From NCBI GenBank assembly GCA_964016885.1, contig OZ024742.1, forward strand, positions 135,284,001 to 135,348,000: 64,000 bases of DNA, read 5' to 3'. The notes under the pieces were generated by a model. That model was not told where the DNA came from. It made no database searches and saw nothing but the letters and a program-made list of their open reading frames with translations. The stretch is from Eledone cirrhosa (lineage: Eukaryota). Position 1 is the stretch's first letter; each line of letters opens with the position of its first letter. A program made the position numbers and the translations under genes. Below, in pieces: positions 27,788 to 48,135 of this stretch.

Positions 27788-28171
27788 GATGGTAGAGATA
27801 GAAAATGCGAAAAAAGGATGATGCAGCAAATGAGAAGATTGGAAGTGGTGGTGGGGGAGAAAATAATTAGGGTTTCAGAAGAAGAAGAAGAGGAATATAC
27901 CAATCAACAGAACTACAATCATGATTACAATGAGAATTAAAAAAATATAATATTTATATATAAGTATGTATACGTACATACATATATGTATACATATGTA
28001 CAGTAGTATGTATATATATATACATACATGCACACATATATATATATATGTACGTATGGATTCACCGAACATTTATTATAGTGCTCGGTGTGTTTGTAAA
28101 CAAACATCCCGAATTAAGCCGTACAGTGTCTAGCAACCATCGTTGCTCATTTGTTCAACACTGACAAAATA

Positions 28172-28214
28172 ACGCTGTACTAGTTTCAAGCTTATTAGCT
28201 ATCCTCAGCAACGT
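28172..28214 (-). ncRNA. Type I minimal hammerhead ribozyme (element A, copy 1)
   Basis: Minus strand: acgttg-CUGAGGA-u-agcu-aaua-agcu-u-GAAA-cuag-UA^cagcgu. Stem I is 6 bp (one GU), stem II is 4 bp, stem III is the palindrome ACUAGU, and the cleavage triplet is GUA. Confidence 0.88.
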
Positions 28215-28588
28215 ATACCTTCCTGCCAGATTGTTGAACGTATATACTTTCCTTATGCATATTAAAGGCTGAGCAGCCTAATTTGCATATCGAGTGAGTT
28301 AATCGGCCGGAGTACCGAAAACGATAAACGGAAAAAAAGAAACGAAATTTCATTTCTCACACTTAGTACGGCTGTTACTTAAATATAAGTAGGTATACAT
28401 ACATATATGTATACAGACGTACAGTAGTATGTATATATATATACGTACATGCACACATATATATATGTACGTATGGATTTACCGAACATTTATTATAATG
28501 CTCGATGTGTTTGTAAACAAACATCCCGAATTAAGCCGTACAGTGTCTAGCAACCATCGTTGCTCATATGTTCCACACTGACAAAGAA

Positions 28589-28631
28589 ACGATGTACTAG
28601 TTTCAAGCTTATTAGCTATCGTCAGCAACGT
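28589..28631 (-). ncRNA. Type I minimal hammerhead ribozyme (element A, copy 2)
   Basis: acgttg-CUGACGA-uagcuaauaagcuu-GAAA-cuag-UA^caucgu. The only core change versus copy 1 is at the free N7 position; one stem I mismatch. Confidence 0.85.
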
Positions 28632-28777
28632 ATACCTTCCTGCCAGATTATTGAATTCTGTATATACTTTCCTTATGCATATTAACAGTATATACTTTCC
28701 TTATGCATATCAACAGCCGTTAATATGCATAAGGAAAGTATATACTTTCAGAGTTCAATCATCTGGCAGGAAGGTAT

Positions 28778-28819
28778 ACGTGATAACGATAGCTAATAAG
28801 CTTGAAACTAGTACAGCGT
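28778..28819 (+). ncRNA. Degenerate hammerhead (element A, inverted copy)
   Basis: acgtg-ATAACGA-tagctaataagctt-GAAA-ctag-TA-cagcgt. The CUGA box is mutated, so it is predicted inactive. Confidence 0.6.
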
Positions 28820-29585
28820 TCCTTTGTCAGTGTTGAACAAATGAGCAACGATGGTTGCTAGACACTGTACGGCTTAATTCGGGATGTTTGTTTAGAAACA
28901 CACCGAGCATTATAATAAATGTTCGGTGAATCCATACATACATATATATATATATATATGTGCATGTATGTATATATATATACATACTACTGTACGTCTG
29001 TATACATATATGTATGTATACCTACTTATATTTAAGTAACAGCCGTACTAAGTGTGAGAAATGATGTTTCGTTTCATTTTTTCCGTTTATAATATTTATA
29101 GTAAAATGATAAAAAAAATAAACATATCTAAAACAAAAAGGGAGCCACAAAGAATTTTATATGGAATCGATAATGCTATGTTTTGGGGGGTTTTTTCTCT
29201 CTAAGGAGGAAAAAATGCATTCAATAATCTCTCTACTAAAATCTCATTCTTATTCCTCTCAGAAAATCAAATTATCATTTTTCTAAAGAGTATGCTTGTG
29301 TATGTCCAAAGTTTATCTCACGGCCAGATCCAAACCGCAATTGGCCTGAGTGTGATTTCTACAAAATGTATGAATTGCATCGAATTTAGACAATATTTTT
29401 AATTTTATAGAGTTAAACTCCTTCTCTTTCTCTCTCTCTCTCTCTCTCCCTATATATATATATATAAATGAAGTAATTCCGTCGGAAAGGTCCAGGAAAA
29501 AAGAGTGCTCTATGTGGGTTACAGAGCTTATTAGTTATGTAATAAACAACATAAGATAATTGAATACCCCTTCCACTTTTTTGTC

Positions 29586-30445: not shown

Positions 30446-30663
<218 letters not shown>

Positions 30664-30927
30664 ATATCAAGATAAATTAACGGAGCCATAGACTCTTGTT
30701 CTTCCCTGTAAATTATGTGCTCAACGGAAAAGGAATCCTGAGCTCTTTAAATACAATATGTAGAAAGGTTATCACACTAGAGAGAGATAGAGAGAGAGAG
30801 AGTCTGTCATCAATAAAACAAGGAAACCACCAGTGTATGGAATCTATAACCTATGGAAAGCAGGGTAGACACTCAATAATTAAAATATATATTAAAATGC
30901 GCATATCCACCTCTATATCAATATAAC

Positions 30928-31010
30928 ACAAACGTACAAATCCAAAGAGATCTGTTTCGCCAAGACATTATTGACTGAAATAGAAGCGCCTATGGTTCAT
31001 CAGCGTGTGT
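30928..31010 (-). ncRNA. Type I hammerhead ribozyme with extended stems II and III (element B, copy 1)
   Basis: acacacg-CUGAUGA-acca(u)aggcg...ugucuuggc-GAAA-cagaucu-cuuu-ggauuug-UA^cguuugu. Stem III is fully paired (with GU pairs), stem I is 6/7, and the triplet is GUA. Confidence 0.88.
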
Positions 31011-31472
31011 AAGACAAATAGATTCCAGACACATCTAAGTAAATATAAGATAACCGTCCCTGCAACACGGGCAGAGAGATGTGACAGCGTGCATAGGACA
31101 GTGAACCAGTGGTATCTGAGGGACGAGCTGCTATAAATGGCTGCCCAAAAACCACTCAGAGAGATGTGCTCAACCAAACAGAGCGAGAGGAAAGACTGTT
31201 ATCAGGAGCGAAATATCAAGATAAATTAACGGAGCCATAGAATCTCGTTATTCCCTGTAAATTATGTGCTCAAAGGAAAAGGAATCCTGCGCTCTTTAAA
31301 ATACAAAATGTAGAAAGGGAAACGCACTAGAGAGAGAGAGAGATAGCGTGCCATCAATAAAACAAGGAAACCACCAGTGTATGGAATCTATAACCTATCG
31401 ATGGCAGGATAGACACTCAATAATTAAAAATATATATTAAAATGCGCATACGCACCTCTATAACTATATAAC

Positions 31473-31555
31473 ACACACGTACACATCCAAAGAGATCTGT
31501 TTCGCCAAGAAATTATTGACTGAAATGGAAGCGCCTATGGTTCATCAGCGTGTGT
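31473..31555 (-). ncRNA. Type I hammerhead ribozyme (element B, copy 2)
   Basis: acacacg-CUGAUGA-accauagg...uucuuggc-GAAA-cagaucucuuuggaugug-UA^cgugugu. Perfect 7-bp stem I and one stem III mismatch. Confidence 0.88.
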
Positions 31556-31820
31556 AAGACAAATGCATTCCAGACAACTCTAATAACATATAAGATAACC
31601 ATCCTGCAACACGACGCGGCAGAGAAAGGCAGCCCAAACCACTCAGGCTTTCCTCTCTCTCTGTTTGGTTGAGCACCTCTCTCTGAGTGGTTTTGGGCTG
31701 CCATTTCTAGCAGCTCGTCCCTCAGATACCACTGGTTCACTGTCCTATGCACACTGTCACATCTCTCTGTCGCGTGTTGCAGGACGGTTATCTTATATTT
31801 TATTGGAATGCATTTGTCTT

Positions 31821-31903
31821 ACACACGCTGCTGAAACATAGGCGCTTCCATTTCAGTCAATAATTTCTTGGGGAAACAGATCTCTTTGGATTTGTACGTG
31901 TGA
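31821..31903 (+). ncRNA. Degenerate hammerhead (element B, inverted copy)
   Basis: acacacg-CTGCTGA-aacatagg...ttggg-GAAA-cagatctctttggatttg-TA-cgtgtg. Core A6 is mutated to C and the base of stem II is disrupted. Confidence 0.65.
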
Positions 31904-32104
31904 GTTATATAGTTATAGGTGCGTATGCGCATTTTAATTTATATTTTTAATTATTGAGTGTCTACCCTGCCATCGATAGGTTATAGATTCCATACATTGG
32001 TGGTTTCCTTGTTTTATTGATGGCACACGATCTCTGTCTATAGTGTGTTACCCTTTCTACATATTGTATTTTATATATATATATATTTTTTTTTTTCAGG
32101 TCTA

Positions 32105-32138
<34 letters not shown>

Positions 32139-32142
<4 letters not shown>

Positions 32143-32582
32143 CCTGAACAAATGCGCAAGCTCAAAAGAGCTACAGAATGTTATAATAAACCTTCAAAAG
32201 TGTGGGACTAGAGTTGTTGGTAAAAAATATTCTAATCATTATCTATCGTACACTCTCTGGCATCCTTTTATAAAAAAGAAACTCCATAACGAACTCAAGA
32301 CGACACGATAATTATTTAAGCTAATGTTCAATATCTCATATTAGATGTTTAGTAATGATTAATACGAAATGCACTGAAACCGAATTCTATATTATAAATT
32401 CACTTAAATATTTATCGTGTCGTCTTGAGTTCGTTATGTGTCTCTTTTTTATAAAAGGGTGCCACAGAGTGTACGATAGATAATGATTACACTATTTTTG
32501 AGCAACAACTCTAGTCCCACACTTTTGAAGGTTTATTATAACATTCTGTGGCTCTTTTGAGTGTGCACCTTTTTCAGGTCTA
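32139..32582. repeat. Fold-back element: ~180-bp inverted arms, ~80-bp spacer
   Basis: tagacctgaa...cgacacgataattatttaag (32139-32320) pairs with cttaaatatttatcgtgtcg...ttcaggtcta (32403-32582). It adjoins a (TA)n tract. Confidence 0.93.
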
Positions 32583-33021
32583 GTTTAATATTTTTTTAAG
32601 GCAACGCTTGTAATAACTCTATTTAAACATGATATATTTTAATAATAAATTATCGTTATAATGTAATTATTTTATATAATTGTTATTTTATAAATGATCT
32701 TATAAATATTATTGTAAGATGGATAAAAAATATTTTCAGACATTTAATATAAACGACTACAAAAAACAATCAATAATAAATAAATATATTTTACATAATA
32801 ATTGTTATAGTTGAATTAATACAAATTAAATATTACATACAAATAGTCTAACATATAATAATAAATAAATAATCTAACATAATAATAATAAAATAATCTA
32901 ACATAAAACGAACAATAATATGCACAAATATGATACAACCAATATTCTAAGCATGTTATAACGAACTGAAAAAAAAATAGTTAATATAAGTTTAAAAAAT
33001 CATATGTAAATTAACAATATA

Positions 33022-33705: not shown

Positions 33706-34332
33706 ATATTAGCGTTGTGACTGAAACTGTGTGGTTCATTAAATTACTGAACTGGCTGTGGATTGATTACAGCTTAAAATACCTGCAGCGAGACGTGTGT
33801 TTAATATACATAAACATTGTATATGCTTCCATATATACATATATAAATGTGCGTATGAGGCTGAGTGGCTGTGTGTGTATGTCTGTATATTATTTATTAC
33901 ATTTGAACTAGACCACCAGTTAAAAGCTATTCAGCAGAACGTTTAATTTTGTAGTGATGATCTTAGCTCATTTACTTAGTTAATTATGTTAATAACAGTA
34001 AAAAAAATACGGTTATACAGTTGATTACTCCGAGTTTCAAATCCAAGTTTATCAAATATTTGGCTGTATATATGAGACTTAGAAAAACAATTATTAAATA
34101 ATATTATGTATAAATATGTCCCATTTATGAAGGGTTTATTCGTAAGCAAATTATAGAGGGAAATTATTGAATGGACAGAGGGAAAATCTGAGACAAATGA
34201 GGTAGCGAAGTAAATATAAATTTAGGGACAGACACACATAGAGAGGGAGTGGATAATAGAAGAGGGGGGTGAGAGTGTGGTGTATATTGAAAAGAAATCT
34301 ATAGCCAACGAAATTTGAAAGAGTGAAATATA

Positions 34333-35234
34333 CAGAGATGTGCCAGAAAATTTCCAGGACTGATGTCACAAAAGATTTATTTCAAACCCAAACTTCGCAC
34401 TAAGAGTTATCCCTTCAAAGTAATCCACCTGGAGTCTAATGCACTTTTCCATCCTTTTCTGCCACGCTTGCATGCACTTCTGGAAGGATTCTTCTGGGAT
34501 CCTCCGCAGTTCCGTCGTCACGGCCTTTTTGATGTCGTCCACGTCTTCAAAACGGGTCCCCCTCCGAGTCGTACTCGAAGATCTATGACTCATCACCGAA
34601 CATGACTCTCCCTAGCAAGTCTGGTTCGGTTTCAAGACGCTCGAGGATGTCCTGGAACACTTGCATGCGTTGACCCCTTCTGGTCATCGTTCAGCAGTTT
34701 TGGCACCATCTTCGCGCAAACTTTCCGCATGTCCAAATCTTCAGAGAGAATCTTCCAGACGCTGTCCCGATTCATGCCCAGCTCATTTGCCATCAGTCGA
34801 ACAGTCATCCGACGATCGATACGCACCATCTGCCTGACGCGCTCAGCGTTGACCTCAGTCCTGGTTGTTAAGGGCCTTCCGCTCCTGGCGTCATCTTCCA
34901 CGACCTCGCGTCCTTCTTTAAATCTCTTGCACACCGCTCAAAAACACGTGGGCGTGAAATCGTTTCATCTCCATACACTTGCTGCAGCACAATCCCAGTG
35001 CATCTAACGGAGTTTTCAAGTTTGTTCTTTGCTCTGTGCTCATTGCTTGACGACCTGAAACAGAGGAAATGTATATAAAATTATGAAGAAAGAAGTTTGA
35101 TCGCTGCAGAGGGCTATGATTACAGCTGCATACTCCAGGGGGATTACTTTGAAGGAGAAAACTCTTAGTGTGAAGTTTGGGTTTGAAATAAATCTTTTGT
35201 GACATCAGTGCTGGAATTTTTCTGACACACCTCG
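34333..35234 (-). mobile_element. Tc1/mariner DNA transposon, internally deleted, ~103-bp TIRs, TA target-site duplication
   Basis: TIRs at 34333-34435 and 35132-35234, TA at 34331-32 and 35235-36, with transposase remnants inside. Confidence 0.95.
34366..35043 (-). pseudogene. Mariner transposase pseudogene (HTH region and C-terminus; catalytic DD34D core deleted)
   Basis: MSTEQRTNLK...KRFKEGREVVEDDARSGRP...DRRMTVRLMANELG...KVCAKMVPKLL (WVPHEL-equivalent) jumps to RGTRFEDVDDIKKAV...KRMEKCIRLQVDYFEG. Frameshifted. Confidence 0.92.
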
Positions 35235-35448
35235 TATATTAAAACAGACAGAAAAATAAGAAAAGAGGAATAGAAAAATTAAATAATGAAACAACGGTAA
35301 GTATGATATTTTACTTCACTATCTGTAAAATAATTCATAAATACATTTTTTTATAATCATAAGGGAATTTATATTTATAAAGGAAATGGAAAAGGAGTAA
35401 AGGTATAAAGTGTTGAATTGAAACAAAAAGAGGTATAGGGATAGATAA

Positions 35449-36599: not shown

Positions 36600-38260
36600 T
36601 CGTGTGTTTTCAGTTACTGCACCCTATACAAACAACAAATTCGACAAAGGTCGCGAGACTCCAGGAGTCACACATGAAGAAAACCCACAAAATCCAACGG
36701 TCACCATGTCCGCTACGGCAAAGTTCCCTCTACCAGTTGTTCTCCAATCTTCAGGTGTATACCCAAGGCAGGCCCATTCAATCAGACCACGCTCGCATCC
36801 TACACCCACCTCACAACAAACTGGCTGGAAGGCAGAACGTCCCTCTCCCCCATGGTTTTCCTTTTCAAATTAAACCTGAAAATCTTAATCAGGGCTTCGC
36901 CGAAGAGGAAAGTGTTGGTCCTCAACAGTTTTAAATGTGTCCACTATATAATCTTTTTTTTTGCTATGGTCACCAGACAGTTAAGATAGATTTCCCTTCC
37001 TGACTAAAGAAAGGTCGAAGGGGCATTCTTCTCAATGGTCTCAGCTGATAGGCATATTCGTCCTACATGTGACGGCAGGTGTTCGACCTAAATCCACAGA
37101 TCAGTGATGCTCGTACACTGAAGGAGTGCGTGCAGGGCCGATTTCTTACTCTTCGCGCATCTCGGCAATTCGTTGCCTGTAGAGTTTATACCGAACTTGC
37201 AAAGTTCCACGGTAGCACTGCCAAGTCAGGGATTTCTGAAAAGTATCTATAGACCCGGGACCAACGGTCCACGCGAAAAGAGTGGGTAGAAGATTTTCGT
37301 CGCTGCTTATAGTTTCTCCAAGAATATCATTGCTTTTATCCGCCACTATATCTCTATAGAATGCTAAGGTGTTGTTTCCACTGACAGTACTGCCCAATTG
37401 GAAGAGGGCTGTGAACGCTTAAAATATTTCAGTTTCCAAATGCTCCCTCCCGATCTACTCTTGATTCGGCACTGGAAGTTCTTTAAAAAGAAGAGCTTGG
37501 AAAACCATGTATCTAGTGATCGGTGGCCACACATGTTAACGGTTTAGTAAAAGACACAGATGTTGTAGCCTCAGCGCATGTTTGAGCATTGTCAGCTAAG
37601 ATCTTCCCAATCTTCTTCGCGGCTGGTATTGACAGCTGATGGGCGGCTTGAACATCGGAACGCGTTCCTACCACATGAGGTGAAAGAGCAGACGTTCCTA
37701 TGCAGTCTGACTGAGCTTAGGAAAATGCACGTCGGTCAGGTAGAAGTAGATAACGGACGGGTATGTGCTTGTCACCTCTGCCTGACCTCTCAATGATAGC
37801 CTCCCCTCGGCGCATTTCTGAGTGAGATTGGATACTCTGTTCGCCACCTTATACCATTTTTGTCTATTTTGAGGTCCTGTCAGAACCAGACCCCGAGAAA
37901 TTTAACCGGGCAATCCGTCCATCACTCGACTCCACTGTCGGGCGGCATAAACCTGCCTTTCCAGGAGCCGATTTGCAAGCTTACCGATAAATTCTTGTTA
38001 ATTTTTCTCCTGTCAGTGCATCGTGTTCCCTCAGAGCAGTGTCGATCACATTAATGTGTTTGATGCTCGATACTTCTACGGTGACGTCGTCGGTATAAGC
38101 AGACACGGACCTCACATGTCCTAGTTCACACCGGATGACACTGAAAGTTTCTAATGTGTGCAGTAGTGGCTCCAGATTCAATACATTCAGCTGGAACGAG
38201 AGGAAACAACATTGGCGGACCGGATGCAAGAGGATAGTTTCTTTCTTAGTCACATAGGTC
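36600..38260 (-). mobile_element. 5'-truncated, decayed L1/Tx1-like LINE (RT and C-terminal region, 3' UTR)
   Basis: Minus-strand ORFs contain VRQCCFLS...LEPLL...SAYTDDVTV (QGCPLS and YADD motifs) and FQKSLTWQCYRGTLQVRYKLY. Related to the 46730-48135 copy. Ends are approximate. Confidence 0.85.
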
Positions 38261-40954: not shown

Positions 40955-40957
<3 letters not shown>

Positions 40958-41827
40958 AAATACGAAAATTATAAAAATTAACTTACTAAAATTTCACTCC
41001 AACTAATTAGATTCTGAAAGGAAATAAACATGGTTTCCGAGGGAACACATGGAGAAAGTCTTTCGTCATCAGGGAAGTATATTCTCAGCTAAGTTCCCCG
41101 GCAATGCGTGGACACGGGGAACTTATACAAAAATAATTCAGTGGATGGAAAAAAGCAAAGCGTGGACTAAGTTCCAAGACATTGAAAAATTCACTGCCTA
41201 CTTGGTCGGTGGCAAATTCAAAAGAATCAATCACGTGACATCGAGGTTAATCAGTGGGGAGTGGGGTGTTAAGAAGACAGCAGCCGAACCATTACTATGA
41301 ACTATAGTAGCAGTTTTGGCAAATTTTTTCTCAACAAAATAATTTGGCGATAATTATGAAGAATTAGTATATCTACCAACATATATATATACAGATGCAT
41401 ACCTATGCTAGCAAATATATAGGTTTTGTCTTAGTAACATTGTGGTTCAATGCAAGGGGATGCAGAACAATTATATGAAAGACGTAAAATAAGAAAATTA
41501 TAAAAATTAACTTATTACTAGAATTTCACTCCAACTAATTAGTTTCTGAAAGGGAATAAACATGGTTTCCGAGGGAACACATGGAGAAAGTCTTTCGTCA
41601 TCAGGGAAGTATATTCTCAGCTAAGTTCCCCGGCAATGCGTGGACACAGGGAACTTATACAAAAATAATTCAGTGGATGGAAAAAAGCAAAGCGTGGACT
41701 AAGTTCCAAGACATTGAAAAAATCACTGCCTACCTGGTCGGTGGCAAATTCAAAAGAATCAATCACGTGACATCGAGGTTAATCAGTGAGGAGTGGGATG
41801 TTAAGAAGACAGCAGCCGATGTCACGT
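40955..41827 (-). mobile_element. Element C: ~333-bp direct repeats around a ~200-bp spacer, with a stem-II-less hammerhead-like motif, between (TA)n and (CA)n
   Basis: Repeats at 40955-41287 and 41484-41819. Each has minus-strand uucc-CUGAUGA-C-GAAA-g...c-UC^ggaa. An 11-bp terminal inversion at 41817-41827 is the reverse complement of 41765-41775. Confidence 0.7.
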
Positions 41828-46729: not shown

Positions 46730-48135
46730 ATGAAAAAGCATCGTTGTCTCTGATCCAGACGAAAAGAGAGTGTGTTTGAATACATATAAAATAAAAAACT
46801 TCATCGTTAGAAAAGCCGTTAAAAGAGCCAAATGATGTCAAATACAGCGATTGGCAAAATTGTCTCAGAGGACAGAGACCAGCGGCCAGTGCTCGACAGA
46901 AACACCACACGGAGCGGGTAACGAGGCGTGTTGTCTACGGTTTGGTGGGGAAGGTGCAAACATGCGCAATCCCGACCAGATCCATTCACGACAAACTCTA
47001 CCTCATGCGATAGATCATAGATAGTTCAGAGTGCAAGCCTGGATTCGGGGGGCAAGGTCAATTTAGATCAATCGAAAGCTTACGGGAGGCTCGATCATCT
47101 AAACATGGAGGTTGTCCTCAAAGCGGCTGGCTTCAGTCCCGTCTTTAAAGGCTGGGTCACTGCAATGCACAACGGCATCTGTACAGTGGTCAAAGTAATT
47201 GGATATCTTACGGAACCGCTTCAGATCTCCCGATCGTTCCGTCATGGGTTCCCTCTTTCCTCCCTTCTCTGCGTGACATGATTGTCGAAGTTGGAGTTAT
47301 TGCAGGGCATCCCGTTCGAACGGGGATGTGGGAGGGCTGCGTCTGCATATGCGGACGACATTACCGTCAAGTTGTCGAACGGCTCAGTAATCAAGGTGGT
47401 CGGCATCTTCCTAGAGGAATACGAAAGATTGACGGGAGAAAAACTGAACACGGAAAAGTCGATGGGTTTGCAGCACTGCACCTAGAGAGGCAAACCCATG
47501 TCATTCAGCATAGTCGTCGGACGCAGGACGGATGGACCCGGGAAGTTTCTCGAGTTCTGGTTCGGACAAGAACTCCAGGTGGATGAGGACTGGGACAAGG
47601 TAACGAGAAGGGTGGCCACTCTCACTCAGAAATGGTCCGAGACGAAACTATCCCTGAGAGGTTGGGCGGTGGTGGGTAGCGAATGCGTACATCACGTCCA
47701 TCATCAACGTGATTTGGTCCCGTTTGCACCTCACCAAATTGAAACGTCTGCTCACCCGCTTTTTGTGGAAGGGACAGTTTCCATTTGGTGAAGCAGACCA
47801 TCTACTACCAGCAGGACTAGTCATGTCGTGCCTGATGCGCAAGCTTCGGCTTCTTCAGACATTAAACGGTGAACAGGCGTGGTGGTAGTGGCGGTGGTGT
47901 GTGTGTGGGGGGGGGGGCACTGCCAGTTCGCAATAAACTCTACAAACAGGGAAGAATGGTCAAACGGACGTGCCCGAGATGCGTGCAGGACGACAAAACC
48001 ATTCTACACGCAAAAATGCTTATTATTATTTTCTTATTGTTATTTTCACTTTTTCCTCGATTTTATTGTAAACACCCACTGTCCCTGTCTTTGTATTGTC
48101 CCCTATATGTCGGTCCTAGTTGACAATAAAGACAT
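46730..48135 (+). mobile_element. Decayed L1/Tx1-like LINE (RT, cysteine motif, 3' end)
   Basis: NLDQSKAYGRLDH, SAYADDITV, YERLTGEKLN and ALPVRNKLY...CPRCVQDDKTILHA. AATAAA near 48126 is followed by an (ATT)n-like tail. Confidence 0.88.

Follow-up and report, generated by a model that had tools for sequence, protein, structure and literature searches.

Organisation of the locus

The window, i.e., the whole stretch of 64,000 nucleotides of Eledone cirrhosa DNA that was analyzed (contig OZ024742.1, positions 135,284,001 to 135,348,000 of the forward strand), contains at 30664-32073 an element of three units, of which one is 5'-truncated, one full and one inverted, flanked on both sides by (TA)n (Table 1). 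The earlier note had confined the element to 30928-31555 and overlooked an inverted third hammerhead copy at 31828. The truncated and the full unit are 89% identical over 420 columns. Within 30664-32073 all ORFs stay below 120 aa, and the RT plus GIY-YIG ORF of an autonomous Penelope element (PLE) is absent. No tRNA gene was found within the window, hence no tRNA-like head such as a tRNA-derived SINE would have.

Table 1. Features of the element, in window coordinates. Units are numbered so that the commonest end of the family is position 545; the cleavage site is then 278/279.
Feature	Position	Strand	Remarks
(TA)n run	30447..30663		abuts the long 3' end; likely target site
3'-most full 545-nt unit	30664..31212	-	ends at the long 3' end of the family, unit position 545
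Tail of ~84 nt	30664..30747	-	unit positions 462-545; absent at the inverted end of the insertion
Hammerhead 2	30928..31010	-	core at 31003; predicted cut 30935/30934
Hammerhead 2, 5' flank strand	31012..31033	-	distal part of the flank/loop II helix decayed here
5'-truncated upstream unit	31213..31625	-	pseudo-LTR-like partial tandem; unit positions 136-545
Hammerhead 1	31473..31555	-	core 31548-31542; predicted cut 31480/31479
Hammerhead 1, stem I	31555-31549/31479-31473	-	
Hammerhead 1, stem II	31540-31538/31507-31505	-	A10.1 31541, C11.1 31504, GAAA 31503-31500
Hammerhead 1, 5' flank strand	31557..31578	-	predicted to pair with loop II (31536-31515)
Inverted copy	31644..32073	+	unit positions 15-461; ends at the short 3' end of the family
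Hammerhead 3, in the inverted copy	31821..31903	+	C3 at 31828; CUGCUGA, core A6 changed to C; G at 11.1; 10-nt flank deletion
Short (TA)n run	32074..32086		abuts the short 3' end

Other repeats are present in the window. A MITE-like inverted-repeat element (32129-32591, arms of ~200 nt, 83% self-complementary) adjoins the right end of the element across the TA run. The region 27951-29090, probably the element called A in the earlier note, combines a tandem and an inverted repeat, and its minimal hammerheads are located at 28208 and 28625 (minus strand); a small hammerhead of the same type lies 3' of the GIY-YIG match of another locus of the genome (L085). A direct repeat (40955-41819, 96%) has hammerhead-like cores at 41072 and 41604 (minus strand), 532 nt apart, with stems that are not convincing. 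A 52-nt satellite array with extreme G skew occupies 1-25545. The regions 34327-35240, 36752-38220 and 47308-47674 are decayed coding remnants, i.e., a transposase-like piece, which we take to be mariner-like, and LINE-like RT pieces.

Hammerhead motifs

The presence of two full-size type I hammerheads on the minus strand is borne out: CUGAUGA is found at 31548 and 31003, the motifs CUGANGA, GAAA and NUH follow the type I order, and GUA with A17 is located at 31480 and 30935, i.e., 545 nt apart. The claim that these hammerheads delimit a 545-nt monomer is right as to the period, but the insertions themselves end farther 3', ~183 or ~267 nt from the cleavage site. In the same manner, the 7-bp stem I holds for the copy at 31548 and has a C-U mismatch in that at 31003, while the 8-bp stem III has a G-G mismatch in the copy at 31548 and two G-U pairs in that at 31003. 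A10.1 does face C11.1 in both minus-strand copies. On the contrary, the long stem II which had been described finds no support and was rejected: conservation is limited to CCA/UGG, 20 of 46 family copies have the first extension pair broken, and the loop bases are predicted to pair with the 5' flank. A non-circular hammerhead permutation (PMC10085705, accessible part) was also rejected, the order of the motifs being that of an ordinary type I. The Rfam hammerhead models give no match to the locus at the gathering score, nor at E up to 10. From its sequence, hammerhead 3 is likely dead, and the hammerhead copies of the window are probably decayed; given the long stem III, self-cleavage as a monomer is plausible.

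The A-C opposition is not peculiar to the two window copies. Among 46 copies, 10.1/11.1 is found as A-C 28, C-C 10, U-C 3, C-U 2, G-C 1, A-U 1 and A-A 1, i.e., unpaired in 44, and stem II is 3 bp, CCA/UGG, above a mismatch. The core is intact in 34 of these copies and broken in 12; L143 and L115 are among the better preserved ones. Stems I, II and III have 94.7%, 95.7% and 96.5% of cells paired, respectively. The covariation across genomic copies which had been proposed as a check is found in stem I, where two pairs show changes on both sides (e.g., pair 40-114: A-U 26, G-C 9, G-U 5; n=44). The pattern of core plus stem II has 855 exact matches in the genome, several families included, vs. 72 for the reversed control, i.e., far beyond chance; it exposed related and unrelated families with a mismatched 10.1-11.1. 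Between families that are ~70-75% identical, core, GUA site and stems are invariant (part of this invariance being fixed by the collecting pattern).

Family copies and insertion ends

The genome measures 3.0 Gb, and its dense microsatellites are reminiscent of those of octopuses. A search of it with the monomer gave 2763 candidates, of which 40 were scored; the top non-self match among those is ~90% identical. A second search gave 1444 candidates (40 scored). The family occurs genome-wide. Among the first 60 loci the closest long pairs are ~94% identical, thus the sampled family looks old.

Insertions of at least 250 nt were then pooled (n=78), leaving out duplicate loci and loci selected by GIY-YIG; 43 are inverted and 35 are direct, proportions that are not genome-wide estimates since the 78 were picked by similarity. 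Their 121 outer 3' ends are distributed as follows: (i) 53 at unit positions 538-545; (ii) 41 at 447-461; (iii) 27 elsewhere, thus 94/121 are classed. In other words the 3' ends of the mapped copies are fixed, at distances of ~183 and ~267 nt beyond the site of cleavage, while their 5' ends are scattered. TA-rich DNA comes after 81 of the 94 classed ends, a raw count into which the TA background of the genome does not enter. Ends at unit position 429 were discarded, since they arise where an expanded (CT)n tract interrupts the alignment. A long and a short end are combined in 23 of the 43 inverted insertions, the window locus among them, and long/long and short/short occur once each; the tail is thus one-sided in 23 of the 25 inverted insertions with two classed ends. 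Double hammerheads on the same strand are found in 5 of the first 30 loci, window locus included. The copies reach at most ~1.75 units on one strand, and runs of two or more full units are absent among the 78 insertions.

Predicted pairing between loop II and the 5' flank

Between the 30-nt loop II and the flank that lies 5' of stem I, ~18 bp are predicted to form, in two or three segments, as a crossing helix that RNAalifold recovers unprompted. In the 46 copies, 94.6% and 86.6% of its cells are paired, and pair 30-59 is found as U-G (19), A-U (16) and U-A (3). When stems I-III and the crossing helix are imposed together on these copies, 93.8% of cells are paired and two-sided changes occur in 32 cells vs. 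15.7 in shuffles. In 21 copies outside the derivation set, two-sided changes are seen at 7 of 19 helix pairs, and the covariation score of the whole structure is reached by 0/500 shuffles, though column 10-61 is unpaired in 11/21; it must be noticed that all these counts are inflated by shared descent, which the shuffle controls leave in. The flank/loop II duplex of each representative was also compared with its own shuffles: in 11 of 17 family representatives no more than 5/300 match it, and 6 fail, the flank window having assumed a 7-bp stem I in 3 of those 6. The proximal 5 pairs alone discriminate poorly, since 57 of 262 non-cognate pairs also score 5 of 5. The pairing of loop II with the flank is supported, at the level of sequence, by compensatory changes in two separate copy sets.

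Two alternative roles are predicted for such a helix, that of bracing the ribozyme and that of shutting it down. Pseudoknots bracing stems I and II are known and are required for fast cleavage (PMC3088659). As in these, including that of human C10orf118, the stem I side and loop II of the hammerheads described here are predicted to form Watson-Crick pairs instead of loop-loop contacts, and stem II is short; however, the bracing pseudoknots reported in the accessible part of that paper have 4-6 bp, vs. ~18 bp here, which is possibly too long for full coexistence with stem II. The return linker, which leads from where the full helix stops to the 3' strand of stem II, has 7 nt here and 2-3 nt in a sister family. 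With an ~18-bp helix and so short a linker, stem II may be incompatible with full flank pairing.

On balance we lean towards a stem I/stem II tertiary brace formed by the proximal 11-14 bp. The opposite reading, that of an off-switch within the same mobile element, is less likely: the helix would form first in transcription and exclude stem II or stem I, and the RNA (or circle) would stay uncut until a protein refolds it. A link of 2-3 nt, as in the related family, is too short for a straight 18-bp helix, and all genomic copies read through the cleavage site, so that the template must be uncut RNA. Moreover, pseudoknot-free folding of the 46 copies prefers the two flank helices (probability >0.5 in 25 and 27 copies) to stem I (5) and stem II (0); in the two window copies it gives no preference to either structure, with stem II at p 0 and the flank helix at p <0.05. 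Nevertheless this folding model cannot score pseudoknots, hence must choose between crossing helices. Stem I covaries too, and the proximal helix begins at the usual place of known bracing pseudoknots, with 1-2 nt separating it from stems I and II; both observations speak against the off-switch.

Penelope elements and search for a helper

GIY-YIG matches in the genome amount to at least 10,597 candidates, of which 150 were scored. Seven long ORFs all match RVT_1 (one above the curated cut-off) and 5 of the 7 also match GIY-YIG. Two stop-free PLE frames with RT similarity, L091:2809-5622 (minus strand, 938 aa) and L093:1775-5062 (plus strand, 1096 aa), are by their sequence candidates for recently active helpers. 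The translation of L091 contains a Cx4CxxC linker, a trait of Neptune/Nematis that is tied to (TA)n targeting (PMC8557442). The PLE 3' ends that were inspected bear a small hammerhead, followed by (TA)n.

Neither blastn nor a hammerhead-region profile found a helper carrying the DNA of the unit, or any linked ORF, in 90 GIY-YIG loci, out of the at least 10,597 candidates; the sole piece shared has 70 nt and lies between TA runs. The PLE neighbours at L043, L117 and L139 were rejected as helpers, being separate families with their own small hammerhead and their own (TA)n end. A helper PLE likely moves the 545-nt repeat.

Further hammerheads were noticed at these loci. The PLE 3' regions of L091, L092, L100 and L102 carry minimal hammerheads ~1.0-1.4 kb past the ORF, with a U3-A8 core variant that is on record (PMC4209133). 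L092:6200-6659, L121 and L160 belong to a distinct tandem family, non-coding and with a 459-466 nt period, whose hammerheads are large; its stem II is long, with U-U at the base. Short hammerheads with a 4-nt loop II and an extended stem III (L096, L100, L107) form another family near PLE loci.

Comparison with known elements

The comparisons refer to the accessible parts of the papers cited. Animal tandem repeats of type I hammerheads are established as non-LTR retrozymes (PMC7229834), which have been argued to be non-autonomous PLE derivatives (bioRxiv 10.64898/2026.07.22.740005). The 545-nt repeat resembles the metazoan ones in several respects: (i) a non-coding tandem unit with a type I hammerhead and low GC (PMC7229834); (ii) co-occurrence with PLEs carrying minimal hammerheads; (iii) a length falling in the 51-972 bp range of retrozymes (bioRxiv 10.64898/2026.07.22.740005). 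It differs from them by partial tandems of less than 2 units, inverted copies and a one-sided tail instead of long arrays, by a stem III of 7-8 bp vs. 1-2 bp, and by a 30-nt loop II with a long flank helix. The retrozyme circles described are strongly self-paired, whereas the monomer here, known from DNA alone, pairs with itself only slightly more than shuffles do (z −1.4, for the aged copy of the window alone). The hammerhead HHR_Amex2 of the axolotl retrozyme also has a mismatch at the base of helix II, U-U instead of A-C or C-C here, with a helix III of 2 bp; it cleaves despite this mismatch, 22% in 1 h as a monomer (PMC7229834). Of the genomic retrozyme dimers tested, 1/9 cleaved (bioRxiv 10.64898/2026.07.22.740005). 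Since non-LTR retrozymes are established and the helix II mismatch has a precedent in axolotl, the tandem-hammerhead repeat belongs to a known kind.

PLE insertions are characterized by a partial tandem, an inverted 5' copy, a one-sided tail and a (TA)n bias (PMC8557442). The element shares with Neptune-type PLEs and their non-autonomous derivatives the partial tandem (pLTR), the 5' truncation, the inverted 5' copy, the tail at one end, the (TA)n targets and a hammerhead near the 3' end (PMC8557442, PMC4209133). Its tail is longer, ~84 nt vs. the 30-40 bp described. Unlike PLEs it has no ORF, and its hammerhead is full-size and not minimal; the G10.1-C11.1 pair, highly conserved in PLE hammerheads, is absent here.

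Probable origin and proposed mechanism

As the anatomy of the insertions is that of PLEs, the repeat is best read as a non-autonomous PLE derivative, i.e., a non-LTR retrozyme. We hold it rather probable that the locus represents the old insertion of a repeat of 545 nt which exists in many copies, is non-coding and carries a type I hammerhead motif, likely a non-autonomous PLE. The same anatomy, identical to that of PLE ends, would also be expected if the copies were 5'-truncated 3' ends (pLTRs) of an autonomous PLE family and not a self-propagating non-coding element, and the GIY-YIG loci examined are 90 of at least 10,597 candidates. This is improbable, however: what precedes a full unit is the end of another unit and not coding DNA. 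Of the 30 best loci, which were selected because they cover the monomer, 29 have a piece ending at 545 directly before position 1, and the junction of the other one is interrupted; moreover the PLE ORFs beside copies (L043, L117, L139) have 3' ends of their own. Satellite-type DNA arising by unequal crossing-over, with the hammerheads as passengers, would account for the tandem 545-nt period; it is largely refuted by copies that are dispersed over many contigs, have less than 2 units, are 5'-truncated and inverted, and show fixed ends before (TA)n, and we give it hardly any weight.

For the non-autonomous PLE derivative, the following steps may be proposed. A tandem source copy would be transcribed, its two hammerheads would release a 545-nt monomer and ligation would give a circle. 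The GIY-YIG endonuclease of a PLE would nick a (TA)n site, and priming by RT would take place within the RNA, at either of two fixed points that end in AT. At the DNA level, the copy is seen to run back across one or two cleavage sites, 5'-truncated, and often to have gained an inverted second copy that ends ~84 nt short. In the RNA, the covariation shows a pairing of ~18 bp between loop II and the flank 5' of stem I, and the proximal 11-14 bp would hold as a brace the weak 3-bp stem II, devoid of the G10.1-C11.1 pair.

The copy of the window starts past the cleavage site (ends in the family are 183 or 267 nt past it) and runs back over 955 nt. A linear monomer, from cut to cut, is thus excluded as the template, because copies start past the cleavage sites and run back across them; their extents point to a circle or to an uncut tandem transcript. 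A circular route has been proposed for PLEs (PMC4209133). A circular template might be expected to give multi-unit runs, and their absence in the 78 insertions counts against it. The template may instead be an uncut linear read-through of a tandem copy, the ribozyme being slow or vestigial and no circle being made; copies that never exceed ~1.75 units per strand, the weak self-pairing and the non-canonical 10.1-11.1 go in that direction. We regard it nevertheless as unlikely, since the core, GUA site and stems kept between ~70-75% identical families imply selection in source elements, with the caveat that the collecting pattern fixed part of this invariance.

Significance

The link between retrozymes and Penelope in animals has so far been drawn from co-occurrence and pLTR similarity (bioRxiv 10.64898/2026.07.22.740005, accessible part). 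The retrozyme described here bears the full PLE insertion signature, i.e., inversion, one-sided tail and (TA)n target. That a retrozyme bears this signature is one addition, and the other is the long flank/loop II helix with its covariation; no description of them was found in the literature searched (outside of supplements and closed journals). No description of the flank/loop II architecture was found there (subscription papers, supplements and some hammerhead drawings lying outside the search), nor any of hammerheads in a cephalopod-like genome (subscription papers and supplements likewise outside). As the Rfam models miss the motif of the family, such hammerheads are probably undercounted.

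A wider and more doubtful proposal is a genome-wide radiation of retrozyme families having a 3-bp stem II without the 10.1-11.1 pair and, between the 5' flank and loop II, an ~18-bp two-segment clamp acting as a two-state switch. If this were true, the proximal half would brace the active fold while the full length would shut the ribozyme, so that the circle survives as template for the Penelope reverse transcriptase; in that case the fixed insertion ends, which lie away from the cut, would directly record in DNA that circular RNA had been primed. As it stands, it follows from the insertion ends that the template extends across the cleavage site, and the family provides naturally covarying variants in which to follow how a long flank/loop II helix replaces the G10.1-C11.1 pair and the loop-loop contact.
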